From positions 4,201-68,200 of the forward strand of contig JAGVNC010000084.1 in NCBI GenBank assembly GCA_020053475.1: a stretch of 64,000 nt of DNA. Direction: 5' to 3'. A model generated the notes under the pieces. The model searched no databases and was not told the DNA's origin. It saw nothing but the letters and a program-made list of their open reading frames with translations. How positions within the stretch are numbered: position 1 is the first letter of the stretch; every line of letters starts with the position of its first letter. Shown here in pieces: positions 1 through 49,358 of the stretch. Source of the stretch: Candidatus Omnitrophota bacterium (lineage in GTDB: Bacteria > Omnitrophota > Gorgyraeia > Zapsychrales > Zapsychraceae). Position numbers and translations under genes: made by a program.

Positions 1-931
1 TCTCCGACAACGCCCTCGAGATTTCATCAAATGGCGGTTGCCCCTGATAATACAAGGCTGAGGTTACCTTGTATTCTTGCTCATAAAGTTTTCTTAATTG
101 TTCATCTTTCAGCAAGAAAGCCTCTTGTTGGGCAATAGGAATTTTCTGATCTGCGGCAGGGAATCTTTTCTTTTTATGTTGCTGATATTTTTCTGTTCCT
201 ATAAATTCTTGAACGGTCTTATTCTTTAAAAGGCATGCGACATCATAATAATGCCTGATAAAGTTAGCAGGCATTATTCCCGTTTCTTGCTGTTTGCGAA
301 ACTTCGTTGCGATCGTTTGCAATTTTTCAACAAATGTATAACCCGGATGGTAGCACAAAACACCACGAGCTCTATTATCCTTAACCTTCAGTCCATTCTG
401 CAACGCAAAATCAAGCGCCCAAGAACTAATATCCATCGGACTGTTGGGTGTCACCTCATCAAATCCAACTTCGAACAATACGCCCTCTTTTATGCCCCCA
501 GCAACAGGAAAAGCGGATTTGTAAAAAAGTCGGATACCGCCGCTAAAATATTTCTCATTGTCAAATTCCGTGTCACGAACAATTCTTTGTATCCCGTCAA
601 TTTTAATTTTCTTCGCTAACCAATCATAATATTGCTTGCGGCTCGCGCAATGATCCGGTTTTATATGATTCGGGCCAGTTTTCACGTCCCTATCGTTGGG
701 TGGCTCGATACAAATATCAATATCTTCTGAAAACCGATGAACAATGTCATATCCTTTAGAAAGCGACGTACCGCCCTTGAGTTCAAATTTGAATCCCTCT
801 TGTTGAAGGCCATATAAGACATGCATCATCCAGTAATCTTTTTCAACCAAACTGCGTTCAATTTTTTTGTCACGCTCTACCGCCAGCAGAAGCTTTCTAA
901 ATTCTGGATGATTGTGAAGATAATCAGACAT
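1..931 (-). CDS. AbiEii/AbiGii-family nucleotidyltransferase toxin (type IV TA), C-terminus runs off window start
   Basis: Minus-strand translation from ATG at 931-929 reads MSDYLHNHPEFRKLLLAVE...ELKGGTSLSKGYDIVHRFSEDIDI, the GG-T...RFSEDID nucleotidyltransferase motif of DUF1814/AbiEii. The start overlaps the upstream AbiEi stop (ATGTCTGA). Not in the ORF track because no stop lies inside the window. Confidence 0.6.
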   Translation of the reverse strand, partial: MSDYLHNHPEFRKLLLAVERDKKIERSLVEKDYWMMHVLYGLQQEGFKFELKGGTSLSKGYDIVHRFSEDIDICIEPPNDRDVKTGPNHIKPDHCASRKQYYDWLAKKIKIDGIQRIVRDTEFDNEKYFSGGIRLFYKSAFPVAGGIKEGVLFEVGFDEVTPNSPMDISSWALDFALQNGLKVKDNRARGVLCYHPGYTFVEKLQTIATKFRKQQETGIMPANFIRHYYDVACLLKNKTVQEFIGTEKYQQHKKKRFPAADQKIPIAQQEAFLLKDEQLRKLYEQEYKVTSALYYQGQPPFDEISRALSE

Positions 932-1559
932 GAGCTAAAGATTCCCCTGAGATCCACTGATTAAATAAAGTTTTCGTTCTTTCACCTGCATACGCATTGA
1001 CCGCACGCTTCATTTGCGATTCTGGTTCCTTCAGCACTTTTTCTTTAACGCTTTGCAAAACATCTTCCCGATCTTCCGCTAATTCATTTAAATTATTCAA
1101 CAAATCAACCAATAAAAACGCTTCGGAAAGCTCTTTAGGAAATTTATGTTTTAAACGAAAATCAAACTCCTTGCCCCCAAGCACAAACAAACCATGCCGT
1201 TTATGATTATAAACAATCCGCTTGTTGTACAATTGCGTTGTTCCCACCCCTAATGAATTATAAAGATTAGGCGACGTTAAAAGAAAATCATCGCTTTTCA
1301 AGAAAGCCCGCACCAACTTTTCATCTTCCGGTGGCACAGGACCAAAAGAGGCTTTTGCGGGATAATAATACACCCCTTGCGCCATTTTTTGCAGAGTCCC
1401 CTCCTCAACCAGTTGCTTTAAATGCCGGTCAACCGCAGTCGACCATTGCTCAAGATCAACCCTACGGTAAACCTGCCCTGGTCTTAGATATTTTTTTAGC
1501 CCTTCAAGTGCGTTCATTTTGACCACCTCCCACACTTCAAGTATAAAAGATTTCCTCAA
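924..1559 (-). CDS. AbiEi-family antitoxin / transcriptional regulator (type IV TA)
   Basis: 211 aa protein immediately upstream of, and overlapping, the AbiEii-like gene. Size and position are typical of AbiEi; no strong motif check possible by eye. Confidence 0.5.
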   Translation of the reverse strand: MRKSFILEVWEVVKMNALEGLKKYLRPGQVYRRVDLEQWSTAVDRHLKQLVEEGTLQKMAQGVYYYPAKASFGPVPPEDEKLVRAFLKSDDFLLTSPNLYNSLGVGTTQLYNKRIVYNHKRHGLFVLGGKEFDFRLKHKFPKELSEAFLLVDLLNNLNELAEDREDVLQSVKEKVLKEPESQMKRAVNAYAGERTKTLFNQWISGESLAHV

Positions 1560-6525: not shown

Positions 6526-6528
6526 AGC

Positions 6529-6659
6529 AAACTCAAAACTCTAAATCCTAAACAAATCCAAAACTCAAAATCCTAAACCCAAAATAAACTCAAAACATAA
6601 AATCCAAAAAATTTGGATTTTGTATTTTGGGTTTGTTTAGAGTTTAGGATTTAGGGTTT
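6529..6659. repeat. Family-A intergenic hairpin repeat, copy 3 (convergent lipoprotein / purN spacer)
   Basis: aaactcaaaactctaaatcctaaacaaatccaaaactcaaaatcctaaacccaaaataaactcaaaacataaaatccaaaaaa / tttggattttgtattttgggtttgtttagagtttaggatttagggtttc. Confidence 0.6.
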
Positions 6660-7259
6660 CTCAACAATTTCCACCCTTCTCCCCTTCATTGTCAATCTTC
6701 CCTCGACAAAGAGCTGGATCGCTTTCGGATAGATGCGGTGTTCGATTTTGTGAATTTTTTCGGTAAGAGTTTCGATCGTATCGCTTTCAGCGATCTTGAT
6801 CGCGTCCTGCAGGATAATGGGGCCGTGGTCCATTTTCTCGTCGACAAAATGGACCGTTGCACCGGTCACTTTAGCGCCGTAGGTAAACGCATCTTTGATG
6901 CCGTCAAGGCCTTTAAATGATGGCAACAACGACGGATGGATGTTTAGGATTTTACGCGCATAAGTTTTTACAAAAAATGCCGATACTAACCGCATATACC
7001 CGGCCAGGACGATAAAATCAATCTGTTCCTGCTTCAAATGGATGGTGAGTTGCCGGTCATAGCTCGTCGGGGTCGCGTAGTCCTGGGGATTCAAAAACAA
7101 TGTTTTGATGCCGGCGTCTTGGGCCCGCTTAAGGGCAGGGGCTTTACGGTTGTTGGACACGACTAACGCCAATTCTCCGGTAATCGTTCCGGCCTTGACC
7201 GCATCGATAATGGCCTGCAGATTAGATCCATGCCCGGAAGCAAAGACTGCGAATTTCAT
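6651..7259 (-). CDS. purN: phosphoribosylglycinamide formyltransferase
   Basis: MKFAVFASGHGSNLQAIIDA...NIHPSLLPSFKGLD...HFVDEKMDHGPII, the classic PurN blocks; 202 aa. Confidence 0.85.
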   Translation of the reverse strand: MKFAVFASGHGSNLQAIIDAVKAGTITGELALVVSNNRKAPALKRAQDAGIKTLFLNPQDYATPTSYDRQLTIHLKQEQIDFIVLAGYMRLVSAFFVKTYARKILNIHPSLLPSFKGLDGIKDAFTYGAKVTGATVHFVDEKMDHGPIILQDAIKIAESDTIETLTEKIHKIEHRIYPKAIQLFVEGRLTMKGRRVEIVEKP

Positions 7260-7267
7260 TTTAAATT

Positions 7268-7316
7268 ATCCTTTTTTAAAAGTCACTCGTCGCTAGTCTC
7301 TCGTTGCTAGAGACGA
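7268..7316. repeat. Family-D palindromic repeat (tctcgtctct ... agagacgaga core)
   Basis: cactcgtcgctagtctctcgttgctagagacgagaggcgagc. A second copy with the same core lies at 53036-53088. Confidence 0.4.
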
Positions 7317-7356
7317 GAGGCGAGCACCGAGAGACTGATGACTCTTTACTCAACAA

Positions 7357-8643
7357 TTATGCCATGCCGACCCCAGCAACCGCAAGGGTCGATTTGCGGG
7401 TCTTCCATAATCCCACTCCTCCATACACAGCGCAACCCATCCCGACGACCGATAGAATCCAACCCTTGTCGACAAACTCCGACACCCAGGAACTAATGAG
7501 CATCGCCACCAGAAAAGCAAAATGGATGACAATTTCCATCGAGCTAAAGACCTTGCCGCGCATTTCCTCATTACTGACCAAATGGATAATTGTATTCGAC
7601 GCCACAAAGACCGGCCCGATCGTGAATCCCCAAACACAGGCTAAAATCATCCCTAAGAAAATATTGGGGTATTGATAGATCAACATCGCAAATGTCAGAA
7701 GCATCAATCCTCCGGCCATTAAACACGCGCCGATGGTCCTTTGCCAAGAGATATTTTTCCCCCACTTGCCATAGGCCATGACACCGCTAAAAAGGCCGAT
7801 CACCAAAAATACAGCCAAAATCCCCAAGTCTTTGGTGACGCTATGAAACCTCTCCTGGATAAAGACAATCATGACGACATAAATCGAACCCGCTGCGGCC
7901 AAAAGGACAAAAAATGTATTCATCACAAAACGAATTTCAGATTGTTTAAATAGATACATGACCCCTTCGCGCATTTCATCCCACAGGGACTTTTTGATGG
8001 TAACGGCAATTTCTTTAGTGCGCTGGAGAATCATGGTCCGCGTCGGCCGGTACGATAATAACCTCCAGGGAAGGCGCATATTAAATAAAAGGAACGCGGA
8101 AATAAAAAATGTAATGGAATCGATGAGAAAGCCGTTGCGGGCGCCAAAATATTCGATGAGGAAAGCCCCCACCATCCCCCCTAAGCCCGCGGCAATCATT
8201 CCCGTCGTGGTGACCAACGAATTGGCCTTCAATAAACTCTCCGAGCCAACAACGTCAGGGATGATCGACATTTTGGCCGGAACATAAAAACGGCTGCAAC
8301 AAAAACTTAAAAAAACCACAATATAAATAGGAATCATCGACTCCCAGAAAATAAAAACGAACGGAATGGTCAAGATCAACATCCCGCGGATCAAATCACA
8401 GATCAATAACGTTGTGCGTTTGTCCCAGCGGTCCACAAGCACCCCGGCAAACGGCTGCACCAAAAAAACAGGAATGATCGTAAACGCAAGCAGCTTGGCC
8501 AACCCAAGGGTGGATGATCCTGAAGAGCGTTCGGCAATGAGCCCGATCAGCGCCAATTGATGAACGCGGTCCCCAAACTGGGAAATCAATTGGGCCAACC
8601 ACAGATGTGAAAAATTACGATTTTTGATCAGAAATCCTATCAT
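7357..8643 (-). CDS. MFS transporter
   Basis: 428 aa, about 12 TM segments, and an N-terminal FGDR-type motif typical of major facilitator proteins. Confidence 0.7.
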   Translation of the reverse strand: MIGFLIKNRNFSHLWLAQLISQFGDRVHQLALIGLIAERSSGSSTLGLAKLLAFTIIPVFLVQPFAGVLVDRWDKRTTLLICDLIRGMLILTIPFVFIFWESMIPIYIVVFLSFCCSRFYVPAKMSIIPDVVGSESLLKANSLVTTTGMIAAGLGGMVGAFLIEYFGARNGFLIDSITFFISAFLLFNMRLPWRLLSYRPTRTMILQRTKEIAVTIKKSLWDEMREGVMYLFKQSEIRFVMNTFFVLLAAAGSIYVVMIVFIQERFHSVTKDLGILAVFLVIGLFSGVMAYGKWGKNISWQRTIGACLMAGGLMLLTFAMLIYQYPNIFLGMILACVWGFTIGPVFVASNTIIHLVSNEEMRGKVFSSMEIVIHFAFLVAMLISSWVSEFVDKGWILSVVGMGCAVYGGVGLWKTRKSTLAVAGVGMA

Positions 8644-33693: not shown

Positions 33694-36600
33694 TCACAGT
33701 CTGGTTTTCGTTGGGATGGGGGGGGACTTAGGCGTGATGGTGCTGGGTGTGACGGTGATGGGTGTGTCATGGGTATAATAGGGGGAAGCGGCTCCCACCG
33801 TATCGATGGCTCGGCAGCGGAGAAGCGCCTGGGCTTTCTCTGACAGGGTGTTCAAATTCCACACGACCGCCTCCCCTGCAGAATGCGTGCCAATGAGATT
33901 CCAGTCTCCTCCGTACACCTCGTACACCTCCTCCCCGATCTCGATGGCAGGAGGAACCGCAGCGGCCAGTGCGCGCTCAAATGCAGGAGCCGGCGTATCG
34001 AGTTGGAAGGTAGGGAAATCTTCGAGGAACAAGGTCAAGGTCTCTCCTGGCAACATGGTGATTGCCGTACTATTCGTTAAGGCATAGTTACAACTGCTCG
34101 CCGGGCCGCTCAGGCAGAACCCTTTCGCGGTGTGATCGAGCTTCGCCGCGGTATCTGGGCCGGGAAGAAAGAGGAGGGCTTCTCCGGTTGTCGAACTCCA
34201 ATACCCGCTCAACGGCGGCCATCCGACCTGCATCGTCGCGAAGCCTGGGATGAGAACAGAAGCGAGGGTTCCATCCATCGACGTGGAGATCCACGTATCG
34301 AAGGAAGGATTGTAGTAACGCGTGTCAAAGAAGCGTACTTCATTGAGCGTAATGGGCGGACCGGTCCGGATGATGCGCAGGAGCGGGCTCTTGGCATTCG
34401 ACCATGCGTGGATCTCGGCCGCCCATCCTGTCCCTTGCTTGGCCACGGCACGCCAGAACGCATAGGTGGCGCTACTCTCTTGGAGCGTGAAGTCGAAAGT
34501 ATGCCATCCGTCTGCGTAGAAGGAGAGCGCCACCGCTGGGCCAGCCGCCCCTGGATACGCAGTATTGAAGACATAGCCCGTGGGATACTGATGGTTGCAC
34601 GTGACTCGTCCAATCGAAGCTGAGAGTTCACAATTAAGACTGATGTCCGTCTGCGGAGCCCAGGACAGATAATTATCATTGGCGATGATGGATCCTGGGT
34701 ACGTTGGCAATGAAGCACCGCTGTTACCATAATAAATAGCATAGTTGGTTTTGCCTTGAATATCTGCAAGAAACGTGATGGTTCCCTGGAGAAGACTGGC
34801 ATAACTGGGCACTTCATTTCCACCCTGGCCACAGGGCGCATCGATGACGCGTATGGCATTGGCCTGACCACCAAACATCGATAAATCCAGGAACACCGGC
34901 GTGGCAGGCCGTGGAATCGGCTGAGGAAGTGGATCGGTGAATGTCACGGTTCGACACGACTGCCATGTCCCTAACGACGCCTCGACGTCATACATCAGCA
35001 AGTCACCTGGAGAATCGGAAGACCCGGAGCAGGCGAGCGCAACCGATTCAAAAAACGTGCCCTTGCAGACGGCACCATTGCAAGAGAGCGACGTGGGAAT
35101 CGTCGGGGGGGTGTTGAGCGTAAAGGTCACCGACGTGAAAGCGGGATGGCCCACCGCATCGTTGGCGAACAGGGTCAGCGAATGGGGGCCGGCAGTGACT
35201 TGCAGGGTGGTCGGCGCACAGGACGGCAGGGCCTGCGGCGGACTCTCGTCGAGCGTGTACCAACATGACGCGACCCCACTGAACGCATCCGTCACGGTAT
35301 AGCTGAGGGGAATCGGGAGCGCGGCATACGTGATGTCCTTTGGCGACTCCAAGGTGATGGCCGGCGGTGTGATATCGAGCGCGATGCTCGCGACCTGGAT
35401 GGTTTCGCTATTGTTCACGATGTCCTGGGAGTGGAATCTGAGGTAGTTCGTCCCCTCTGTCGAGATGAAAAACGGCGCAGAATACGTTAGGAACGGGACA
35501 CACGAATTGTTTTGATCAAGACAATAGAGAGTCGTCGCGCACCCGGCGCCCCCGGCATCGGTACACGTCAACGTCACCAGCGCATCCGTACTCTGCCAGC
35601 CTTGGGGCACGCTGGCGGAAGTCACGGGCGGCAGGTTATCAATGGTAAAGGCCACGGTGGTTGCGGTTTCATGCCCCAGGACATCGCTCGCCCCAATCGT
35701 CAGGTTATGGGGGCCGGGGGAGAGTTGTTGAAGGATGGTGTGCTCACACGCCGGGAGCGTCTGCGCCATGCCGTCATCCAGCGTGTACCAACAACTCTGG
35801 ATGCCACTCAATGCATCGGCCGCTTCGTAGACCACTGGAAGATCAGCCAGCGGGTAGACACTGTTGTTGGTGGGGGACTCGATGACAAGTGACGGGGGTG
35901 TTTTATCGAGCAAGACAATGTGCGACTGGATGGTTTCCAGATTACCGGCGTTATCTTTGGCTTGGATGCGGAGATAATGTGTTCCCTCATTGGAAATCAG
36001 CACGGGGGCTTGATACGGCGTCAGAGGAAGACAGGCATTCTCTTGATCGACGCAATAGTCTATCGTCGCGCACCCGGCACCCCCACTATCGGTACACGTC
36101 AAGGTCACCAGCGCATCCATACTCTGCCAACCTTGGGGAAAGACGCCGGAGGTCACGGGAGGAAGATTATCAATCGTCAGCGTGCCGGATGACACAAGCG
36201 GTTGGCTCTGCTGTCCTTCCGCAGACGCCACACAACGCAAATGCACATTCTCTATTGCATCAAATGCCGACGTATCCCAGAGCACGGAACCGCCAGCCGG
36301 GTGCGTACCGATCGGCGTCCAGGCCTTGAAGGTCGGCACGAGGGGCGCGACAAAGCGATCATACGCTTCCACACTTTGTGGCCCCATCGCCTGCTCCAAC
36401 GAGCCGGTCGTGAAGATCAGCCGCCAGGGATGGATGGTGCCAGACGGGAACGGCTGCACCGACAGCGGATACCAGGTGCCGCCAAAGCTCGGTTGGCCGC
36501 CATTGTTACTGACCCCCAGGGGGTGCGGCAGTTGCGAGGCATAGGTCATCGCGAGCACTTGTTCCAGAGAAAGATTAGATTCGGATTTCGAGATCGCCAC

Positions 36601-39600
36601 GCGCGTCCGCTCCTGGTCGCCAAAGGTAAGCACCGGCGCACTGGCCGAGGCCGTGTAGACACTGGGATTGCTGCCGTAACTGTAAGAGAACGGCGTGGGG
36701 CCGGTTGAGCCGCCGGTGTAGAAGGCCACCGTATCCCCCCACGCCGTGCCTCCATTAAAGGAGGAGCGTACATCAATCCAGGGGCTGCCACGGTAGAATC
36801 GGAACGCCTGCCACGCGAGCCCTCCGGGCTTGGCGCAAGTGACCTCCACGACGACTGGTCCACTGGCCGTCACCGAACAGGCGGCATCGGTGACGGTGCG
36901 ATCAAAGATGGCGGTGCCAGGCCCTGTCCATGTGGTATTGGTCAACATGCCCAGCGACCCATCCGAATCCGGAGCGTTTTCATAATCCCACCCGATGAGC
37001 CCTTGCGTGAGGGAAAACGGTTTGTACACGAGTTCGTGGATGACGCCGCCGGCATGGTCTAGCCAAGCTTTCACCACCGCATTTTCGATGGTACAGTCTG
37101 CGCTGACACAATCGCCGGTGTGCACCAGATCGGAACTGTACGTCGGGGCGCCTTGATCGGTGGTGGCGTAGTAGATCCCGTACGCCACCGGCGTGCCAGC
37201 GGGACGCGTGGCCAGGAAGACCAGGCGGGTGCTCTGATACGTCGTGCCGACCAGCGTCGACTCATACGTTTGCGAAGGAATTTCTTGGCCGCCGGCGCCA
37301 CAGGCCGCATCGACGACCCGTAAGGAATCTTTGAAGGGCGCCTCGGTCCAGACCGAGGCATCCAACATGAGGTCCACCGGTTCCGACTCATAGGCCAGGG
37401 GGGAGGCCGTATCTAATGTCACTGTGAAACACTTCGGAAACGCCGGATTCCACCAGCCGGGTTGTTGCACATCTTGTTCATCTTCATGCCATTCTTCGGC
37501 GGTATACACGAGCGGGTCCTGCTGTGCGTCCGTGGCGCCGCTGCAAACCACATCGATGGTCCCGGAAAACAGCCCGGTGCAATTGCCGTCATTACACTGC
37601 ATCGCGGTCGGCGGTGTCGGGGGGGTGTTCTGTTGGCACGCCAACGTACAGTCTTGCGTGCCGGCCATCACGCCTTCACAGGCAGGGTCAGCTGTACAAC
37701 CCGCAGCATACAGCGACGACCGACAGATCGGCGCGTTGTCTTCTCCGGTACAGATGGCGGAACACGTATCGCTAAAGTAGGTCTTCCCGACGGCGCATCC
37801 CGGAAGATCGCTGCCAGGAAACACCTGATCGCAGGACGCATCCGCACCGCACGCTGCGGCACAAATTTCCGCCACATCATCTCCGCTACCTCCCTGCCAG
37901 TCGCATTGGAAGATTGCAAGCGATGAGCACGCGTCCTGTTCTTTTTCATCACAGTATTGCGGAGCCCCACAGGTGCTCTCGGCCGACAGGACACAATCCG
38001 TACCGGTCACTTCGCAGGCCCGTTCGTTGAACGAGCCGCCGTGTTCACACGCATCTTCATGCGGCGTGGTTTCATCGCACGACGGGGGAGCCCCGAATGC
38101 CTCTTCGCAACTGCCGCCACCGCTACACGTCATCGTGGTGCCAGCACATTGCAGTGACGATTCGAGTTCGCCATTGCGGCAGGCTTCCCCATACGTGTTG
38201 CACGACCCATCCGAGCATGTCTGTCCTGTCGGAGATGCCTCCACGCAATTGCCACCATTGACAGAGCACGCGGCTCCGCAACAGAATCCATTTTTCGCAG
38301 GAACCCCAAGACCGCAGTCGCCGTCGTTGCAATCCACAAATCCATCACAATCATTGTCAACACCGTCGTTGCACAGTTCTGCTTGGAGACAGGAGACGCA
38401 CACGTTACTCAGCGGATTGCTGTCTGGTTTCTTGCAGTAATTGCCCGGGCCGCAGTCCGCGTCCGCCCCGCAGTTCAGCACCAGATAGTTCTCACTATGC
38501 TCGCCAACGTCGAACTGGCCGTTCTCGTTCGTGTCCCAGTACTCCCACAGCTTGCCCCCGTAGAACCCGTACCCGTAGGGATTCCCGGCCGGGTAATTGG
38601 AGAGGCACAGGATGTCGGGGAAGCCGATCTCGTTCACGGGGCCCGTGTACGTCTTCGTGACCGTCACCGCGTTCTCGACCTTCTCGTCGCAGTCCCCGTC
38701 GTAGCAGCCGTAGGACATGGTCTGGGCGAAGTTCACCATGTCGCTCACGAGGTAGCCTGATTTCACCTCGCAGCGGAACCACACCTTGTACGTGTCGCCT
38801 GCGAGCATGTAGTGCTCCAGATAGCCGTCGTTGTCCACGTCCGCATGCTTCCACTGGTAATTGTTCGCGCAGTACGGGCCGTACTTTATGGTGTCGACGT
38901 ACCCGGAGTATGGCGGCTCGTTTACGACGATCGTCCAGTTGTAGCATTCGTTCTCATCGCCGCCGCAGATGTTCTCGTCGGTCTGCCCGTCGCAGTTGTT
39001 ATCCACACCGTCGTGCGGACACACTTCCGTTGTTGGACCCTGCCCTCCGGTGCACGGGCCCCACTGGCCGCTTACGCATGTCTGCGTGCCGAAGGAGCAT
39101 GCTCCTACATCTGTTCCACAGGGCTTGGTCTGACCGTTCACACAACTGCACCCTTCATCCGTGATCCCGTCACAATTATCATCGATGCCGTTGCAGAGTT
39201 CCTGCGCGCCGGGGGTGCCGGTGCTGCAGCTGGATTTGCATTGGGACGTCGTCGGATTGCACCCGTAGGCGCAGTCTTGGACCAATGTTTCCTGAAGAAT
39301 CGTGTCCTGAAGGGCGCAAATACCTTCCATTGGAATGGTCGAGCTGCAGCCATACTGGTACTGGGTGGTGAGCACATAGACATCGTCATTTTTGCAGTAC
39401 GGTGATGAGGAAAAACTGTAGTTTTGCGCTTCACACACTGTTTCGCAAGGATAATAGCCGCATGGGTTCAGTTGGCATGCCAGCCATCCTCCACTGATTT
39501 CACCGATTGCAAGAGCAGAGCAAAAGCCACAATTCAGGAGATCAAAGAACACTTTTAATCCGATCCCTTCTAACAGCATCGTCCCGTAAATCTTAAACGC

Positions 39601-40608
39601 CTTGGCTTTGTTAAGAAGGTCCGGAATCTGCTTGACGAGTTCGCCCAGATCTGCGGCATTTTGAATGAGGCTGGCCGCATCATAAATGTCGGTCCCTTGC
39701 CCACACTTCCCTAAGATGTTTTGCTCGACGAAATCGCTTAGTGTTTGAGAAAAATCTGCAGCCGTGTCGTAATCAACCACCGCGTTGAGTTGATATTGAA
39801 AATTTTGTAACCCATTCAAAATATCCTGTTTACTTTCGCAGACTGTCAGTGCGGCATCTTGCACTAATCCAGTCATATCTCCGAGTAAATACGTAATCGT
39901 ATGCACGGCAGGATTATAGGAAGGATCGGCTTGACCGTTGAACCACTGCGTAAGTGAGATGAACAGATCATACAGTTCATTCGATCCGGCGCCGCACGCA
40001 AAGGAGCAGGGATTGTGGCTATTAAACCAGTCAACGAAATAGCCAAAACACACCGCGCTATTGCAGTCCACTTGGCTTTTCTGGGTGCCAGCATCGGGCG
40101 GGGGGGTAACAACCCGTCGGCTTTTGATGTCCACATCAACTCGTCCCTGTGGTGAATACAATCGCAACAGCAGCGTGCCCTTGTCATCTTTGACCACATC
40201 ACACAAGGCGACCCCTGAGGTGCCTTGCGCCTTATTGTGATGCTGGATCAGATACATGCCGGAGAGTTGTTCTGAAAAGAAGAGCGCGACCGTCATGGTT
40301 GCTTCTGGCGTGTCGAGCTGCACCGCGCGTTGGGTAGGGCGGAATCCTAACTCTTGGGCATAGCGATAGGCATCGCGAACTTGCGGATCTTCGCGAAGGA
40401 ACGTCGTCACTTCATCTGCCGTGAGATGACGAACTGTTGCACCAGAGAGTGTCTGTGATGGAAAGGCCGTGGTGCCGCGGGGTGCCGGTTCTGTGTCAGA
40501 AGCCGCGAGTCGAGGAGAGGCCATAAGAAAAATGGCCACGACGAGCGTCACTGCGAGACACCGTGTTGAGGTAGGACATCGTGCTCCAGCTTGACAAATG
40601 GGGAGCAT
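33694..40608 (-). CDS. giant secreted cysteine-rich repeat protein (2304 aa). It has tandem chitobiase-C/Ig-like modules plus MopE-type C-x-DG-x-DNDCDG repeats
   Basis: Uninterrupted 6.9 kb ORF with ATG at 40608 and an N-terminal signal peptide. Two or more tandem ~190-aa repeats (NLPPVTS..QGWQS.DALVTLTCTD.GGAGCAT..YC.DQ.N.C.P...Y.AP..IS.EGT.YLR). Repeated ELCNDGVDNDCDG / CNGIDDNCDGITDEGC / HDGVDNNCDGQTDEN motifs and dense Cys. GC and third-position GC are markedly higher than neighbouring genes. Confidence 0.8.
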   Translation of the reverse strand: MLPICQAGARCPTSTRCLAVTLVVAIFLMASPRLAASDTEPAPRGTTAFPSQTLSGATVRHLTADEVTTFLREDPQVRDAYRYAQELGFRPTQRAVQLDTPEATMTVALFFSEQLSGMYLIQHHNKAQGTSGVALCDVVKDDKGTLLLRLYSPQGRVDVDIKSRRVVTPPPDAGTQKSQVDCNSAVCFGYFVDWFNSHNPCSFACGAGSNELYDLFISLTQWFNGQADPSYNPAVHTITYLLGDMTGLVQDAALTVCESKQDILNGLQNFQYQLNAVVDYDTAADFSQTLSDFVEQNILGKCGQGTDIYDAASLIQNAADLGELVKQIPDLLNKAKAFKIYGTMLLEGIGLKVFFDLLNCGFCSALAIGEISGGWLACQLNPCGYYPCETVCEAQNYSFSSSPYCKNDDVYVLTTQYQYGCSSTIPMEGICALQDTILQETLVQDCAYGCNPTTSQCKSSCSTGTPGAQELCNGIDDNCDGITDEGCSCVNGQTKPCGTDVGACSFGTQTCVSGQWGPCTGGQGPTTEVCPHDGVDNNCDGQTDENICGGDENECYNWTIVVNEPPYSGYVDTIKYGPYCANNYQWKHADVDNDGYLEHYMLAGDTYKVWFRCEVKSGYLVSDMVNFAQTMSYGCYDGDCDEKVENAVTVTKTYTGPVNEIGFPDILCLSNYPAGNPYGYGFYGGKLWEYWDTNENGQFDVGEHSENYLVLNCGADADCGPGNYCKKPDSNPLSNVCVSCLQAELCNDGVDNDCDGFVDCNDGDCGLGVPAKNGFCCGAACSVNGGNCVEASPTGQTCSDGSCNTYGEACRNGELESSLQCAGTTMTCSGGGSCEEAFGAPPSCDETTPHEDACEHGGSFNERACEVTGTDCVLSAESTCGAPQYCDEKEQDACSSLAIFQCDWQGGSGDDVAEICAAACGADASCDQVFPGSDLPGCAVGKTYFSDTCSAICTGEDNAPICRSSLYAAGCTADPACEGVMAGTQDCTLACQQNTPPTPPTAMQCNDGNCTGLFSGTIDVVCSGATDAQQDPLVYTAEEWHEDEQDVQQPGWWNPAFPKCFTVTLDTASPLAYESEPVDLMLDASVWTEAPFKDSLRVVDAACGAGGQEIPSQTYESTLVGTTYQSTRLVFLATRPAGTPVAYGIYYATTDQGAPTYSSDLVHTGDCVSADCTIENAVVKAWLDHAGGVIHELVYKPFSLTQGLIGWDYENAPDSDGSLGMLTNTTWTGPGTAIFDRTVTDAACSVTASGPVVVEVTCAKPGGLAWQAFRFYRGSPWIDVRSSFNGGTAWGDTVAFYTGGSTGPTPFSYSYGSNPSVYTASASAPVLTFGDQERTRVAISKSESNLSLEQVLAMTYASQLPHPLGVSNNGGQPSFGGTWYPLSVQPFPSGTIHPWRLIFTTGSLEQAMGPQSVEAYDRFVAPLVPTFKAWTPIGTHPAGGSVLWDTSAFDAIENVHLRCVASAEGQQSQPLVSSGTLTIDNLPPVTSGVFPQGWQSMDALVTLTCTDSGGAGCATIDYCVDQENACLPLTPYQAPVLISNEGTHYLRIQAKDNAGNLETIQSHIVLLDKTPPSLVIESPTNNSVYPLADLPVVYEAADALSGIQSCWYTLDDGMAQTLPACEHTILQQLSPGPHNLTIGASDVLGHETATTVAFTIDNLPPVTSASVPQGWQSTDALVTLTCTDAGGAGCATTLYCLDQNNSCVPFLTYSAPFFISTEGTNYLRFHSQDIVNNSETIQVASIALDITPPAITLESPKDITYAALPIPLSYTVTDAFSGVASCWYTLDESPPQALPSCAPTTLQVTAGPHSLTLFANDAVGHPAFTSVTFTLNTPPTIPTSLSCNGAVCKGTFFESVALACSGSSDSPGDLLMYDVEASLGTWQSCRTVTFTDPLPQPIPRPATPVFLDLSMFGGQANAIRVIDAPCGQGGNEVPSYASLLQGTITFLADIQGKTNYAIYYGNSGASLPTYPGSIIANDNYLSWAPQTDISLNCELSASIGRVTCNHQYPTGYVFNTAYPGAAGPAVALSFYADGWHTFDFTLQESSATYAFWRAVAKQGTGWAAEIHAWSNAKSPLLRIIRTGPPITLNEVRFFDTRYYNPSFDTWISTSMDGTLASVLIPGFATMQVGWPPLSGYWSSTTGEALLFLPGPDTAAKLDHTAKGFCLSGPASSCNYALTNSTAITMLPGETLTLFLEDFPTFQLDTPAPAFERALAAAVPPAIEIGEEVYEVYGGDWNLIGTHSAGEAVVWNLNTLSEKAQALLRCRAIDTVGAASPYYTHDTPITVTPSTITPKSPPIPTKTRL

Positions 40609-40740
40609 TACAACGCCTCTAAATCTTTGGGGTTAATCCGCCACTTCCCAATCTTAGTAGCGCGGATGTGTTTTTCCCGAATAAGTTTACGAACTCTGTA
40701 TTCAGTTAACCCAATCTGTTTAGCAACCTGCTCTCTACAG
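40609..40740 (-). pseudogene. start-less excisionase/HTH_17-like DNA-binding ORF abutting the giant gene (TAATG stop/start overlap)
   Basis: Minus-strand translation between an in-frame TAG and TAA reads GIFNCREQVAKQIGLTEYRVRKLIREKHIRATKIGKWRINPKDLEAL. This has the Xis/MerR-type helix-turn-helix-wing pattern. There is no ATG/GTG/TTG in frame. Confidence 0.4.
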
Positions 40741-40970
40741 TTAAATATCCCCTAAGCAATATAATATAGCCTTTATTTTAGATTGTTTAACATGATTTCA
40801 CATCATACCACATTTAAAATTTTATTAACAATCAATTCTTCCCTGGCATCATGGAATGGTTTTTCTTTATTTCCTATCTACTCAATCCATTCCGGCTTAA
40901 TTTTCCAATCGCCTGTTGGGAAAACTTTTTCCGTTGTCAACCATATCATTTGGGGATCCTTTCGACAGCG

Positions 40971-41489
40971 CTATAGCCCTACTTTCAACCCATACATCTT
41001 AATCAATTCCAGAAAGGCTTCGGCGTTGCCCTTGGCGTCGTCAACCGGATTGTGTGTGTGCTTGGTTTTGCGTAAATGCTTAAAATTTTTGGAGGTATCC
41101 CTTACCAACCCTTTATAAAGCGAACCTAAATTCATCGATGAATGGCCAAAAGGGTTCTTGCCAAGAAAATGATGGAAATACCAATTAATAAACTGCCAGT
41201 CAAAACCATTATTGTCGGATATGAATATCGGCCGCCCTTTTATATTGTCAGCCAGCCATTTATCGAAAGATTCCATGACAGTTTTGGAGTTGTCGAAGTT
41301 CAATGTTTCTTCCCGGCTGAATCCCGAAACCTTTAATGCCTCCGGCTCCCATTTTCCCGAAATCGGTTTTAACTTTTTATAGAAAGTCCTTGATAGCGAC
41401 GGCTCAACAATAATTGCTCCAAAGCAAACCATCGAATAATCGCCCGGGATAGGGCCGTCGGCTTCAATATCGACAATGACGTAGCTCAT
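40971..41489 (-). CDS. stand-alone DEDDh 3-prime-5-prime exonuclease (DnaQ-like fold)
   Basis: Exo I VIVDIEADG, Exo II FISDNNGFDWQF, Exo III HTHNPVDDAKGNAEAF; 172 aa. Confidence 0.65.
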   Translation of the reverse strand: MSYVIVDIEADGPIPGDYSMVCFGAIIVEPSLSRTFYKKLKPISGKWEPEALKVSGFSREETLNFDNSKTVMESFDKWLADNIKGRPIFISDNNGFDWQFINWYFHHFLGKNPFGHSSMNLGSLYKGLVRDTSKNFKHLRKTKHTHNPVDDAKGNAEAFLELIKMYGLKVGL

Positions 41490-41595
41490 AATATCTCAGT
41501 TCAAGTTATGTAAGTTTCTTGTAGCCGTTACCATACATAAAAATGCACGAATGTTACAGAAAATGGAATGTTCATGCGTTGAAGGCTGTGTTTCC

Positions 41596-42534
41596 TTATC
41601 CCCACGGTCCCGGGGCTTTCCATTCGCCTGGTATGTTGGCTTTATCGTTGATGGCCAATATGACCGGCTCAAGAAACTCGTTTATTTTCTGCATGATCGC
41701 GGGAAAATGATCGGTGATCTTTTTTTCCCTGATTTTGCGCAGGTAGGCCTGCCATTGTTTCTGCCTGTTTTTATCTTCGAAAAACTCCCCCGTAAAAACC
41801 ACCGGATTTTCCGGCAATGGTGTTTCGCGCCTTGAAAACGCAGCCTGCACGGCCTTAAAGAGAACTTTCCCGGTGAAATTATCGGAAAGAGCAAGGGAAT
41901 AAATATCGTAGAAATCCTTCATGCGGCTGTTCACGAAACTTAATTTGATCATGGCCTCGAACTTTTCCGCGATCATGCTTTCCAGCGAGTAGACCTTTAA
42001 CCGGGGATGCCGGTCCTCCAGGATAGTCGGGAAATCCATCTCAAGCGGTTGAGGAACAATGTCGTCTCCGAAGCCCACATCGATTTGTAATATTTTTCGC
42101 GCCTTTCCTAGAGTTGCCTTGATTTTCAGCCTTATGCCATGATACTCTGCTCCTTCTTTTATGTCTTCTGAATGTACGGATCCGGGATCAAAGATTATCC
42201 CGTCAGCGTATTCAATGCGGGCGATGTCCTGAATGATCGCTTCCAGGCCACGGTGTGAATTCTTAATGCGCTGCGCCAGGAAATCAATGTCGATGGTGGG
42301 CCGTGAATGAGGAACGTCATGACAGACCAGCAGAAGCCCTCCTTTGAGCACAAAAGAGCCGGAATGCTTGCTGACAGACAGACGGTATAAAAACCTCTCC
42401 TGCATGTAGCGTAATAAAAGGGCATCAAAGTCGATGCCCTGGGATCTGGCCAGATTCAATAATTTTGCCTTTATGGAGGCCGGTTTATTTTTGATGTTTT
42501 CTATCATCGTTGTTAAATCATGGCGTTCAGCCAC
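41596..42534 (-). CDS. AbiEii/AbiGii-family nucleotidyltransferase toxin (type IV TA)
   Basis: FLYRLS...FVLKGGLLLVCHDVPHSRPTIDIDFL GG-NTase motif; 312 aa. Paralogous to the partial gene at 1-931. Confidence 0.7.
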   Translation of the reverse strand: MAERHDLTTMIENIKNKPASIKAKLLNLARSQGIDFDALLLRYMQERFLYRLSVSKHSGSFVLKGGLLLVCHDVPHSRPTIDIDFLAQRIKNSHRGLEAIIQDIARIEYADGIIFDPGSVHSEDIKEGAEYHGIRLKIKATLGKARKILQIDVGFGDDIVPQPLEMDFPTILEDRHPRLKVYSLESMIAEKFEAMIKLSFVNSRMKDFYDIYSLALSDNFTGKVLFKAVQAAFSRRETPLPENPVVFTGEFFEDKNRQKQWQAYLRKIREKKITDHFPAIMQKINEFLEPVILAINDKANIPGEWKAPGPWG

Positions 42535-43118
42535 GTCTGAAGCACCGGTTTGACGCGGCAGACGGCGGCAAGTTCCAGGAGTTTTTCAATATTGCGGTTC
42601 TTCCGTTTCAGGTATTCCGTCAGGGCCTCTTTGGCCGTGTCCACTCCAAGTTTGTTTCGATAGCGAAAGCAGTCGCAGATCGTTTTCTCCGGAGAATAAA
42701 TCCTGATCTTCTGATTTTTGACCATGATGGTCTCTACACCGGCATGAAACTGTTTTTCGGAAAAATAGTAGAATTCAACCGGCGGGTATTTAATTTTGGG
42801 ACGCCAGGCTTTCCGATGAATGGCCACAGAAACAACCGAAGGATTGAACGTTGTCAGCTGGTAATAGGAAAGCGCGGAAAGCAGGCAAATAACCCCTTCC
42901 GGAACGGCCTGTGCAATGTCAATAAAACTTTGGTGAGAAACAACAGAAACTTCACTCAGTCTGTAAAGTCCAGTTTTGACTTTATTGATAATCCCTTCGT
43001 CAACCATGGCTCGGATATCTCGCGGGTGCACTCCTTTGGCAAGAAGTTCGCCTGTTCGCGCGTAGCCTTTATGGGCATTGAATATTTGTCGGATTTTCTG
43101 ATATTTCTGATTTGTCAT
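42513..43118 (-). CDS. AbiEi-family antitoxin
   Basis: 201 aa, immediately upstream of and overlapping AbiEii by 22 nt. N-terminal wHTH-like region. Confidence 0.6.
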   Translation of the reverse strand: MTNQKYQKIRQIFNAHKGYARTGELLAKGVHPRDIRAMVDEGIINKVKTGLYRLSEVSVVSHQSFIDIAQAVPEGVICLLSALSYYQLTTFNPSVVSVAIHRKAWRPKIKYPPVEFYYFSEKQFHAGVETIMVKNQKIRIYSPEKTICDCFRYRNKLGVDTAKEALTEYLKRKNRNIEKLLELAAVCRVKPVLQTWLNAMI

Positions 43119-43221
43119 GACATTTTTATATGGATAAACTAATAGGCGGATTATAACATATGCCTATGAAACTATCCAGTGTAAATTTTTGTTTGGGGCC
43201 CGATAACGCAACCCTCTCTCT

Positions 43222-46735: not shown

Positions 46736-48376
46736 TCATCTCTCTCCATTTTTAAGGACGACAAGGCCTTCCTTATTGGTATAAGCAAGAAAATACTTTG
46801 AATCTTTCGCCTTAAGATATTTTCTGAAGAGGAACTCTTCTGCTAAGCCCTTCTTAATATTTTCATCTTTAGCCTGACCAATATAAATCTGCACGGGACG
46901 CTTAGCTTCATTTTCAACGATATCAAAGGAAAAATCCGGTTCCTTCTTATGCTGATTCTTAAAGCGTTCCAATTGGGAAACCAATTGTCCCCAAGAACGG
47001 TATTTTGCAGACATCTCACGATTAAACTGAAAACTCATCCAAGCATTTAAAATGATACTCATAAGTAAGATAGTAAAAAGAAGGCTTTTCTGATGATCAA
47101 ATCTCTTGATCTCTATATTTTTGTAGGAAGATGTAAAAGTGATTAAAAACATGGTTAAAAAAAGAGCTAAAGGATAAAAATGATGCAATTGATACGTCAA
47201 ATAAACGAAAGACCTATCAGATACTCTCCCCAATAAAACAAATAAAAGGTAACACCAAAAAAGGATAAAACTTAATGACCGAATGGGATAAAGAGGACCC
47301 TTCTTGAAGGTCTCTAATTCTGAATTCTTGTTGAGTAAACTAAAACGTACTATTCTATAAAGACCTATCAAACAAAGACAAACCAACAAAAGATTAAGGC
47401 TGCTCAAAAAAGGATTGGCAATCAGGTCATATACAAATTTTTCCCGCGTCGGCAAATAAAGCATTGGTTTGTCACCGGAATTGATTTGAATAAAAACAGG
47501 GAAAATAAGCGATTGAATAAAGAAATTTAACGTAGCGAATAGCTGCTTTATCAGAATAAACCCGTCAAACTTTATCGCCTTGCTAAAAATTTCAACACGC
47601 GAATGAACAAAATAATCCATAAAATTGGCAACAAAATAACTGACCGCAGGGATACAGAGTAGGGAAACGGATTTTCGCAGGCCATGCCCTCTACTCTCCT
47701 CTTTGCTTACACTTTTCAACAGAAACATGACAAACACAATGTTGACCAAAATAGAAAATTCATAAGTCAAACACCCCAATGTAAGGAATAAAACCGCTAA
47801 CGATAAATGCCGTTGAGCATTTTGGGGGAAGTGCAGAAAAGAAATAAAATGCTGCAAAGATTGAAGAATAAGAATCAAAGCCAGAAGATATCCGTTTACA
47901 TGATGCCAAATGACCATCTCTTGGCTTAGAGCCGTGACCGAAAAATTTAATAAAAATAGCACCAAGATAAGATTTGGAGCTATAGCCTTAAATAAACGTA
48001 ACAGCTGGCCAATCAAAATCAGATGAAAGATTATCCCCAGCATCTGCCAATAGATAAAGTTATAACCAAAAAATAATTCTTCAAGGCTTAACAACAAAAA
48101 GAAAATAGGCCGGAAAAGAAGTTGGTCACCACCCGACAAAAACATGTTGCGATTGTAGGAGAGACTGAAGGCAAGTTTATCGAAAAAATGATCGAAAGCT
48201 GACGTTTGGATAAGATAAGTAAGCTGATCTGCCCGAGCGACATGAAACAAAGAAGGGAAGTAAACCACGCAATTGGCTAACAGAAGAATTACAAGACCAA
48301 TCCAATATTTATTTTGGGACTCACTATTATCTTTGTCAGAATTTATTTGTATCTTATCTCCTCCCATAAGCTCCAT
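46736..48376 (-). CDS. polytopic membrane protein, third divergent TMTC/PMT-like GT-C paralog (no TPR tail), AT-rich
   Basis: 546 aa, about 12 TM helices, and loop motifs ARADQ and GGDQLLFRPIFFLL echoing the YRPL motif of the 8640 and 10667 paralogs. Codon usage is visibly more AT-rich than neighbours. Confidence 0.35.
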   Translation of the reverse strand: MELMGGDKIQINSDKDNSESQNKYWIGLVILLLANCVVYFPSLFHVARADQLTYLIQTSAFDHFFDKLAFSLSYNRNMFLSGGDQLLFRPIFFLLLSLEELFFGYNFIYWQMLGIIFHLILIGQLLRLFKAIAPNLILVLFLLNFSVTALSQEMVIWHHVNGYLLALILILQSLQHFISFLHFPQNAQRHLSLAVLFLTLGCLTYEFSILVNIVFVMFLLKSVSKEESRGHGLRKSVSLLCIPAVSYFVANFMDYFVHSRVEIFSKAIKFDGFILIKQLFATLNFFIQSLIFPVFIQINSGDKPMLYLPTREKFVYDLIANPFLSSLNLLLVCLCLIGLYRIVRFSLLNKNSELETFKKGPLYPIRSLSFILFWCYLLFVLLGRVSDRSFVYLTYQLHHFYPLALFLTMFLITFTSSYKNIEIKRFDHQKSLLFTILLMSIILNAWMSFQFNREMSAKYRSWGQLVSQLERFKNQHKKEPDFSFDIVENEAKRPVQIYIGQAKDENIKKGLAEEFLFRKYLKAKDSKYFLAYTNKEGLVVLKNGER

Positions 48377-48842: not shown

Positions 48843-49358
48843 TTACGCATGGAACCCAATCCTGCCCTTGGGCTTCTCATCTTCAGCCATCAGCCGGCGG
48901 ATGGCGTCGAAGATACGCTGGACCTCTTCATCTTTTTCATCCATCCTTCTTTCGAGCTGGCCTAATTTCTTGGCCAAGGCATTGTGGCCGCTTAAAATCT
49001 TCCTTAATTTCACAAACGCCCTCATAATGGCGATGTTGACCTGCACCGCGCGCTCACTGTTCAAAACACTGGAAAGCATGAGGATCCCGTGTTCCGTGAA
49101 AGCGAAAGGATCTTTCCGCAACCCCATCTTCTCCTTATTGGATATAACAATTTGTGATATCCAATTTTGAGTCTCTGCCTTGGTGAGCTGGAACATAAAA
49201 TCACACGGGAACCTGTTCTTATTTCTTTTCACAGCCTGATTGAGCGCCCCTGTCTCCACCCCATACAATTCGGCCAGATCTCTATCAAGCATGACCTTTT
49301 GCCCACGGATCAGAAAGATCTTTTGCTGGATCACCTGTACGTCGACGCCTGTACGCAT
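48843..49358 (-). CDS. ORF6N/KilA-N-like domain protein (phage antirepressor-type)
   Basis: IRGQKVMLDRDLAELYGVETGALNQAVKRNKNRFPCDFMFQLTKAE is the ORF6N signature, followed by a coiled-coil tail; 171 aa. Confidence 0.6.
   Translation of the reverse strand: MRTGVDVQVIQQKIFLIRGQKVMLDRDLAELYGVETGALNQAVKRNKNRFPCDFMFQLTKAETQNWISQIVISNKEKMGLRKDPFAFTEHGILMLSSVLNSERAVQVNIAIMRAFVKLRKILSGHNALAKKLGQLERRMDEKDEEVQRIFDAIRRLMAEDEKPKGRIGFHA

Follow-up and report, generated by a model that had tools for sequence, protein, structure and literature searches.

A Cap18-like DEDDh exonuclease gene downstream of an AbiE toxin-antitoxin pair in a Candidatus Omnitrophota contig

AbiE systems, described in Lactococcus lactis (pNP40) and Streptococcus agalactiae, and the MenAT systems of Mycobacterium tuberculosis are two-gene toxin-antitoxin (TA) modules. 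Their toxins, nucleotidyltransferases of the DUF1814 family, add pyrimidines to the 3′ ends of tRNA and block aminoacylation, and the antitoxin AbiEi induces an inactivating auto-phosphorylation of the toxin (bioRxiv 10.64898/2026.01.19.700257). The cytidines added to tRNA by MenT3 are trimmed by RNase PH (bioRxiv 10.1101/2024.03.07.583660). Within the cyclic-oligonucleotide-based antiphage signalling system (CBASS), an exonuclease of the Cap18 clade (Exo) restrains its nucleotidyltransferase by hydrolysing a product intermediate; by destroying the linear intermediate of the cyclase, Exo sets an activation threshold, and deletion of Exo leads to autotoxicity (bioRxiv 10.1101/2025.03.04.641389). 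Here, we analysed a 64,000-nt stretch (the window) of contig JAGVNC010000084.1 from a Candidatus Omnitrophota bacterium, in which a gene encoding a small DEDDh exonuclease lies directly downstream of an abiEi-abiEii pair. AbiE pairs and Cap18 are each already known. We propose, at a probability of about 55%, that this locus is a three-gene variant of AbiE in which the Cap18-like enzyme serves as an eraser or threshold enzyme.

The three genes of the locus

The genes abiEi, abiEii and the exonuclease gene lie in this order and in the same orientation on the minus strand (43118-40971; Table 1). Like the AbiE and MenAT systems, the first two form a bicistronic, co-directional and tightly spaced pair with the antitoxin gene first, a possible operator, an imperfect inverted repeat, overlaps the predicted promoter, and the cassette appears to be mobile. 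The proteins are alike as well: AbiEi combines the AbiEi_4 winged helix-turn-helix (wHTH) with an antitoxin domain, and AbiEii is a DUF1814-fold protein that retains KGG, R-x-T-x-D-x-D, D210, R236 and K267. Unlike in the described two-gene systems, a third co-directional gene, which encodes the Cap18-like DEDDh enzyme, follows the toxin gene.

AbiEi matched Pfam AbiEi_4 (PF13338, E-value 5.5e-7) and, over its full length (residues 5-200), the PADLOC AbiEi model PDLC02265 (3.4e-70). AbiEii matched PF08843 (1.6e-45) and a PADLOC model (5e-97), and its best solved relative is S. agalactiae AbiEii (SaAbiEii; PDB 9HLO_B, 4.6e-36). The alignment with 9HLO_B shows that K64-G65-G66 (KGG), R78, T80, D82-x-D84, R135, D210, R236 and K267 have as their SaAbiEii counterparts K49, R63, T65 (the phosphoacceptor), D67/D69, R117, D192, R220 and K252, whose roles have been described (bioRxiv 10.64898/2026.01.19.700257). 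All catalytic residues are kept, so the toxin is predicted to be catalytically intact. The original prediction, made from the sequence of the window, had recognized the nucleotidyltransferase motif of AbiEii, and none of the residues whose loss would speak against this assignment is missing. R180 of SaAbiEii, which sets the UTP/CTP preference, corresponds to L198 in the window protein.

The closest AbiEii homologues (88-90% identical) are 303 aa long and align from M10 of the window open reading frame (ORF), so ATG 42507, which gives a protein of 303 aa, is the probable true start of abiEii. With this start codon, abiEii begins after a 5-nt gap downstream of abiEi, the same as in the closest homologues' own loci. 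The overlap of the two genes that had been described originally (22 nt) arises only with the upstream GTG.

A promoter-like site was found 30-60 nt 5′ of abiEi. It consists of a -35-like TGGATA (43178-43173), a 17-nt spacing and a TATAAT with a TG extension; the extended -10 element (TGTTATAAT) ends at 43150, and the promoter scan score was 10/12 with the TG extension. The predicted extended -10 is bracketed by the 17-nt arms of an imperfect inverted repeat (43131-43147 and 43162-43178, 76% complementary). The AbiEi of S. agalactiae autoregulates its system via promoter repeats.

By sequence and predicted structure, the closest characterised relative of the exonuclease is Cap18. The protein matched Pfam RNase_T (4.2e-9) and, over its full length, the PADLOC model PDLC00753 (CBASS 'Effector/Exonuclease'; 8.9e-40). 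Its DEDDh residues D7, E9, D97, H146 and D151 do not vary within the family and align with those of Cap18; these motifs and the 106-nt gap to abiEii agree with the original description of a DEDDh exonuclease directly downstream of AbiE. When the PDB was searched with phmmer, Cap18 of E. coli upec-117 (7T2S) was the top match (1.4e-26), and the next match was at 1.4e-3. The AlphaFold2 model of the protein (pLDDT 82, pTM 0.82) matched 7T2S with a Foldseek E-value of 3.5e-16, a TM-score of 0.84 and 36% identity.

A tblastn search of plasmids found genes that are 37-41% identical and annotated as 3′-5′ exonuclease. Two of these, encoding Cap18 proteins 37-39% identical to the window protein, were inspected, and both lie inside CBASS operons: a type II operon of Acinetobacter pittii (SAVED-Exo-nucleotidyltransferase-ThiF-JAB) and a type III operon of Klebsiella (purine phosphorylase-WYL-cyclase-HORMA-like-ATPase-Exo). 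The motifs VD-E--GPIPG-Y, LKPIS, N--FDW-FI, G-NPFG and H----D are common to the window protein and both CBASS-encoded Cap18 proteins. Residues P15, E51, V55, N97 and F120 of Vibrio cholerae Exo (VcExo), with F120 coming from the partner protomer, bind 2′-5′ dinucleotides, and CBASS-associated Exo is inactive on ordinary DNA and RNA and cleaves 2′-5′ phosphodiester bonds selectively (bioRxiv 10.1101/2025.03.04.641389). We mapped the VcExo pocket by offset from the numbering of that paper in the alignment with the two CBASS-encoded proteins, and P15, D49/E51, V55, N97 and F120 correspond here to P13, E48/E50, V54, N93 and F114 (NPFG).

The window exonuclease thus resembles Cap18/CBASS Exo (upec-117 7T2S and the Exo proteins of V. 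cholerae and S. marcescens) in its length, its DEDDh residues and its motifs GPIPG, LKPIS, N-x-x-FDW and NPFG, including the equivalents of the dinucleotide-binding residues, and it is likewise encoded beside a pol-beta-fold nucleotidyltransferase. In contrast to Cap18, it belongs to a separate and far more conserved clade (67-89% identity across phyla), and the window locus carries no cGAS/DncV-like nucleotidyltransferase (CD-NTase), effector or other CBASS gene. The partner of this orphan clade, when present, is AbiEii, NTP_transf_8 or RlaP, not a cyclase. The neighbours of the exonuclease in the window are AbiEii, a helix-turn-helix (HTH) remnant and a giant gene. No CD-NTase or cyclase was found among the top 25 of the 99 PADLOC families that match the 48 window proteins, and no CD-NTase among the top-25 recurrent neighbour families of 153 related loci. 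Since the exonuclease lies outside any CBASS operon, we class it as Cap18-like and not as a CBASS component.

Recurrence and spread of the exonuclease

To describe the neighbourhood of the exonuclease, 153 distinct loci were pooled from genomes, metagenomes and viral contigs, 128 of them with at least 900 nt of upstream sequence. Each neighbouring position held about 130 different Pfam families among 132-138 proteins, many of them housekeeping. AbiEii was the most frequent single neighbour family. It was encoded directly upstream and co-directionally in 8 of the 128 loci (L001, L008, L095, L117, L018, L047, L037 and L039), and the co-occurrence of the exonuclease with AbiE in other genomes, which the original prediction had raised as a check, is therefore seen. 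Locus L055 has AbiEii directly downstream of the exonuclease on the opposite strand, and L038 provides the sole other flank occurrence. Among 1154 flanking genes there were 10 for AbiEii, and 8 of the 10 fell in one upstream co-directional slot of about 7.5 (P ~3e-6 under uniform placement). No other TA family recurred in the upstream slot, and two downstream (+1) neighbours had a PIN domain. The gaps between abiEii and the exonuclease gene were -4 (an overlap), -1, 11, 12, 86, 88, 105 and 106 nt.

A neighbour-joining tree placed the window exonuclease in a monophyletic subclade of eight leaves with at least 82% identity. Four of the six leaves with upstream information are AbiE-linked (the window, L001, L008 and L095); the exonuclease of L011 follows an NTP_transf_8 fragment beside IS30, and that of L010 comes after a SWIM-domain gene. 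At least four AbiEii subfamilies, at most ~30% identical mutually, are represented among the partner toxins, and the exonucleases are 67-89% identical. Loci L008 and L095 share one uninterrupted block of 2110 nt at 89% identity, which begins 59 nt upstream of abiEi, ends with the stop codon of the exonuclease gene and has unrelated flanks. Loci L001, L047 and L117 have in common only AbiEi (51-52%), AbiEii (55-56%) and the exonuclease (75-78%). Conservation of abiEi, abiEii and the exonuclease gene within unrelated flanks suggests that the three genes are a persisting or moving unit in two AbiE subfamilies.

Other pol-beta-fold enzymes that act on RNA ends were also found beside this exonuclease clade. 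NTP_transf_8 is a neighbour in L008, L011 and L035; a tightly overlapping Thg1-like-RlaP-RlaP-exonuclease operon is present in a metagenome-assembled genome (MAG) of Phycisphaerae (L044, 3499-6522), and another Phycisphaerae MAG has exonuclease-RlaP-RlaP (L063, 6001-8426). An RNA ligase (PHA02142 OB and RNA_ligase) is encoded just downstream of the exonuclease in L092. The RlaP, Thg1 and RNA ligase neighbours suggest a connection to RNA-end repair.

At the window locus, the abiEi-abiEii pair with its putative promoter/operator is, from sequence comparison, a discrete and self-contained 1.58-kb cassette that behaves as a mobile unit. Positions 41597-43182 are 88-89% identical over 1583 nt to five metagenomic contigs (L176-L180), with sharp limits at the inverted repeat of the promoter and the stop codon of abiEii; the promoter and repeat element is kept in L176 and L178, and the homology starts exactly there. 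The next gene in these contigs is unrelated and encodes either a 164-176-aa protein of unknown function or DUF4917. A divergent exonuclease in this third position was considered and rejected, as the 164-aa protein of L176 is unrelated (hhalign probability 0.7%). The flanks of the five cassettes are completely different and include mercury resistance, a DDE transposase, ArdA, Fic and a type I restriction-modification system. In the window, the spacer that separates abiEii from the exonuclease gene has no conserved counterpart among the related loci, and no terminator-like or promoter-like site is predicted in it on the minus strand.

The window and L011, which comes from an Omnitrophica WOR_2 MAG, have in common enolase (72% nucleotide identity), an FtsB-like gene, tRNA-Met (91%) and the gene at 3920-5608, a synteny that points to an Omnitrophota origin of the window. 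The L011 exonuclease (86% identical) lies between an IS30-family transposase with a truncated NTP_transf_8 gene and enolase (4453-7941). The position of the exonuclease beside enolase in L011 shows that its location differs even between related genomes.

A protein search found more than 7,900 relatives of the exonuclease, of which the best 120 are 72-87% identical, and a genome scan found 411. The best 80 of the latter are from Planctomycetota (the majority), Omnitrophota, Myxococcota, Desulfuromonadales, Verrucomicrobiota, cyanobacteria, Alpha- and Gammaproteobacteria, Elusimicrobia and KSB1. Compared with its relatives, the window exonuclease has a pS of 0.61-0.98, which indicates saturated synonymous sites, and a dN/dS of 0.03-0.07, and GC content follows each host. 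These values point to an old clade under unusually strong purifying selection. Recent horizontal transfer was rejected as the cause of the high identity, since synonymous sites are saturated and GC content matches the hosts.

Across 175 loci, only the exonuclease coding sequence is conserved, with the same ATG start in 168, and a mobile single-gene exonuclease cassette was rejected because no conserved non-coding flanks were found. A phage origin was rejected as well: relatives were present in 6 of 2.9 million viral contigs (51-69% identity) and in 6 phage records, so this is not primarily a phage gene. Three uncultured jumbo phages of 462-735 kb (H31-H33; LR756500, LR756501 and LR756503) carry an exonuclease copy that is 54-55% identical. 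Given the activity of Cap18 on cGAS intermediates, these phage copies could have an anti-CBASS function. The Thermoguttaceae MAG BF2_50 has three exonuclease copies on three contigs (L033, L042 and L050), 72-73% identical to that of the window; three copies per MAG are unusual for a housekeeping enzyme.

Proposed function and alternative explanations

The three genes are identified and intact, they point in one direction, and their arrangement recurs elsewhere; from these observations we infer co-transcription, a substrate and an eraser role as follows. The abiEi-abiEii cassette would be expressed from its own promoter/operator, and transcription probably reads through into the exonuclease gene, since no terminator is predicted in the spacer. 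By homology, AbiEii would add pyrimidines to the 3′-CCA ends of tRNA and stop translation, and AbiEi would bind AbiEii and induce its inactivating auto-phosphorylation. The exonuclease may then remove nucleotides that a leaky or recovering toxin has added, or it may cleave 2′-5′-linked products, which would keep the toxin harmless at the basal level and make growth arrest reversible. This role would parallel that of Cap18/Exo acting on the CBASS cyclase. RNase PH, a 3′ exoribonuclease that removes the tRNA nucleotides added by the DUF1814 toxin MenT3 in M. tuberculosis, offers a functional analogy (bioRxiv 10.1101/2024.03.07.583660); however, the two enzymes are unrelated: RNase PH is phosphorolytic and a housekeeping enzyme whose gene lies elsewhere in the genome, whereas the window enzyme is a predicted hydrolytic DEDDh enzyme in the same cluster.

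A wider form of this proposal would make the Cap18 clade a general eraser or checkpoint of pol-beta-fold nucleotidyltransferases, which reverses the AbiEii modification here and also serves RlaP/Thg1 RNA-repair operons. AbiE would then be a three-component writer/inhibitor/eraser system in which an activation threshold is built in and cells can return from growth arrest, and the exonuclease could act by two routes, trimming nucleotides on tRNA 3′ ends or cleaving a 2′-5′ linkage made by the DUF1814 protein. We regard this generalization as rather unlikely.

Several points weigh against a three-gene AbiE variant and make the competing explanation of coincidental neighbours a possible one, although we favour it less. 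According to that explanation, a stand-alone conserved exonuclease, for example a 2′-5′ phosphodiesterase or nano-RNase, had a mobile AbiE cassette land upstream of it, and the locus holds an ordinary two-gene AbiE. The functional link of AbiE to the exonuclease is drawn from sequence and context, the 106-nt spacer is long for an operon, and the inactivity of Cap18 enzymes on ordinary RNA and DNA in vitro is a poor fit with simple trimming of 3′-5′-linked tRNA extensions. The homology of the window cassette to the exonuclease-less copies (88-89% identity, sharp borders) ends exactly at the abiEii stop codon, which suggests that the window junction is recent and could be fortuitous. All 5 of the 5 sampled contexts of the closest AbiEii relatives (55-90% identity) lack the exonuclease, including three with an AbiEii that is 55-58% identical. 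Conversely, ~94% of exonuclease loci have no AbiE neighbour, and their contexts are highly varied and often housekeeping: most relatives are solo, beside gmk-rpoZ, PutA, PolA, enolase and similar genes, and the closest relative with a known context (L010, 87%) is the one that follows the SWIM-domain gene. The age of the exonuclease, its purifying selection and its host-like GC content also agree with coincidence. Taken together, the exonuclease-less AbiE copies and the AbiE-less exonuclease loci show that the partnership is recurrent but facultative, and that both modules also occur alone. Coincidence leaves unexplained, however, why AbiEii is the top neighbour and not one of the much commoner TA families, why 8 of its 10 occurrences are in the same slot, why a three-gene block is conserved within unrelated flanks in two AbiE subfamilies, and why further nucleotidyltransferases are neighbours. 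A plausible history is that an exonuclease lineage already associated with AbiE had its toxin-antitoxin pair replaced by another AbiE cassette; a chance insertion of the cassette at this locus has to be kept in view.

The remaining explanations are weaker than the eraser proposal and than coincidence. The original prediction raised the possibility of a composite anti-phage locus. In such a system, AbiE could sense infection and the exonuclease could be an effector or co-toxin that degrades phage or host nucleic acid. The exonuclease does match the defence model PDLC00753, whose label is 'Effector/Exonuclease', and its gene is co-directional with that of an Abi toxin and downstream of it. No larger defence island was found, however: besides the exonuclease and the two AbiE pairs, the PADLOC scan of the 48 window proteins yielded just a PDC-S05 candidate and, 35 kb away, an IetA-like ATPase. 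In addition, ~90% of loci carry the exonuclease alone with no antidote, so it is probably not toxic by itself, which makes it an unlikely effector nuclease. Those relatives that have been characterised act as negative regulators without DNA or RNA nuclease activity (bioRxiv 10.1101/2025.03.04.641389), catalytic-dead cap18 left CBASS protection unimpaired (bioRxiv 10.1101/2022.01.04.474952), and AbiEii is already a complete toxin. We therefore consider the effector explanation improbable and, for this exonuclease, find a Cap18-like function as regulator or eraser more likely than one as an effector nuclease in defence. Least probable by far is a housekeeping orthologue of Orn, RNase T or DnaQ-epsilon. 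The generic RNase_T (DEDDh) fold and the five catalytic residues are alike, and RNase T was the second-best structural match, but with 18% identity and a Foldseek E-value of 2e-9 it ranks far behind Cap18. Identity to RNase T, oligoribonuclease and DnaQ is below 20%, and the best NCBIfam equivalog scores of 27.3, 18.8, 17.1 and 13.9 bits compare with cut-offs of 247, 1043, 196 and 873. The distribution is patchy across phyla, with up to three copies per MAG. The clustering with housekeeping Orn or RNase T that had been named as a threat to the original prediction was thus not seen in the NCBIfam, PDB or Foldseek comparisons. Membership in the Rv2179c/RNase AS family was rejected too, as homologues had only faint precomputed PF16473 matches and no RNase AS chain appeared in the PDB search at E-values up to 1.

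Other features of the window and implications

A second AbiE pair lies at the window start (Table 1), where the original prediction had placed it. It is real by its PADLOC and Pfam matches, so both loci are bona fide AbiEi/AbiEii pairs as had been proposed. Its AbiEi also matched Pfam DUF6088 at 24.3 bits, slightly below the cut-off. The C-terminus of its AbiEii is cut by the window start, with about 15 residues missing; the motif KGG...RFSEDIDI retains R, S and D-x-D, and the abiEii start overlaps the abiEi stop by 8 nt. The two pairs had been called paralogous, but their AbiEii proteins are 24% identical over 178 aa (E-value 0.49) and their AbiEi proteins have only ~20 wHTH residues in common, so paralogy is not demonstrable; the pairs also match different PADLOC sub-models. 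Of the two origins offered for the second pair, these comparisons support independent acquisitions from different AbiE subfamilies, not diversification of specificity. The pair adjoins tRNA-Met (1733-1809). At the same site beside tRNA-Met, the syntenic Omnitrophica WOR_2 MAG (L011, 8249-10845) has a different gene, whose ORF exceeds 753 aa and codes for a PHP-like N-terminus and a P-loop (GGSSSGKT), and the site looks like a variable integration hotspot.

Housekeeping genes flank the three-gene locus, with a Na:alanine symporter and ComEC to one side and BamD-like, LptE and HolA to the other. The giant gene next to the exonuclease has a GC content of 55-61%, compared with ~45% for the window, and its product contains Cys-rich motifs of the MopE metal-binding type as well as Big_7/Big_3 domains; this is probably a surface protein whose gene was acquired horizontally. 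A similar gene was absent beside the exonuclease in the related loci, and the proposed link of the AbiE/exonuclease block to the giant gene was therefore dropped. Between the giant gene and the exonuclease is an open frame of 47 codons (40608-40750, minus strand) that encodes an excisionase/HTH_17-like helix-turn-helix (…VAKQIGLTEYRVRKLIREKHIRATKIGKWRINPKDLEAL) and lacks a canonical start codon. The TAA at its end and the ATG of the giant gene overlap (TAATG), and the frame may represent a regulator coupled to that gene that has either decayed or is initiated at a non-canonical codon.

Elsewhere in the window, in the region 3920-6525 (plus strand), a 562-aa AAA+ ATPase matched PADLOC IetA (2.1e-35) and, more weakly, TRIP13, and its gene is conserved in L011; an IetAS system was rejected, as the 306-aa gene downstream had no IetS or other PADLOC match. 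A 171-aa protein (48843-49358, minus strand) matched the PADLOC 'phage defence candidate' PDC-S05 (2.1e-58). At 3.6 kb from abiEi, a 546-aa ORF (46736-48376, minus strand) without a Pfam or PADLOC match lies where the GC content of the window is lowest (34% at 47-48 kb), and this region may be foreign DNA. Rfam models at gathering thresholds detected three tRNAs in the window and nothing else; around the exonuclease, riboswitches and leaders were absent from the matches.

Table 1. Features of the AbiE-exonuclease locus and of other parts of the window
Feature	Position	Strand	Description
Cap18-like DEDDh exonuclease/phosphodiesterase	40971..41489	-	172 aa, orphan (non-CBASS) clade
Spacer abiEii-exonuclease	41490..41595	-	106 nt
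abiEii-1	41596..42534	-	DUF1814 nucleotidyltransferase toxin; 312-aa ORF from GTG 42534
abiEi-1	42513..43118	-	antitoxin/regulator, 201 aa; N-terminal wHTH and C-terminal antitoxin domain
Putative promoter/operator of AbiE cassette	43131..43178	-	promoter scan and inverted repeat
abiEii-2	1..931	-	310 codons visible; PF08843 2.2e-27; PADLOC PDLC02289 2.1e-70
abiEi-2	924..1559	-	211 aa, different subfamily; PADLOC AbiEi PDLC02234 1.6e-84
Giant gene	33694-40608	-	2304 aa, secreted Cys-rich protein, signal-peptide-like N-terminus

In full-text literature searches, we found no description of the AbiE-exonuclease trio, and neither in these searches nor in the discussion in bioRxiv 10.1101/2025.03.04.641389 did we find an orphan Cap18-like clade so conserved or its recurrent association, as a trio with AbiE and with other RNA-end nucleotidyltransferases. 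If the adjacency is fortuitous, the window holds two ordinary AbiE systems and an uncharacterised Cap18 homologue. The clade is notable by itself: a 172-aa enzyme maintained at 67-89% identity across Planctomycetota, Omnitrophota, Myxococcota, Verrucomicrobiota, cyanobacteria and proteobacteria implies a universal and tightly constrained substrate. AbiE/MenT is a major family of nucleotidyltransferase toxins, and how cells avoid or recover from these toxins is only partly understood; the known control routes are antitoxin-induced auto-phosphorylation and incidental trimming by RNase PH. If the three-gene variant is real, a dedicated, operon-encoded eraser would add a third layer of control on AbiE/MenT toxins, and it would extend the Cap18 principle, in which product degradation sets the threshold, from CBASS to toxin-antitoxin and RNA-repair systems.

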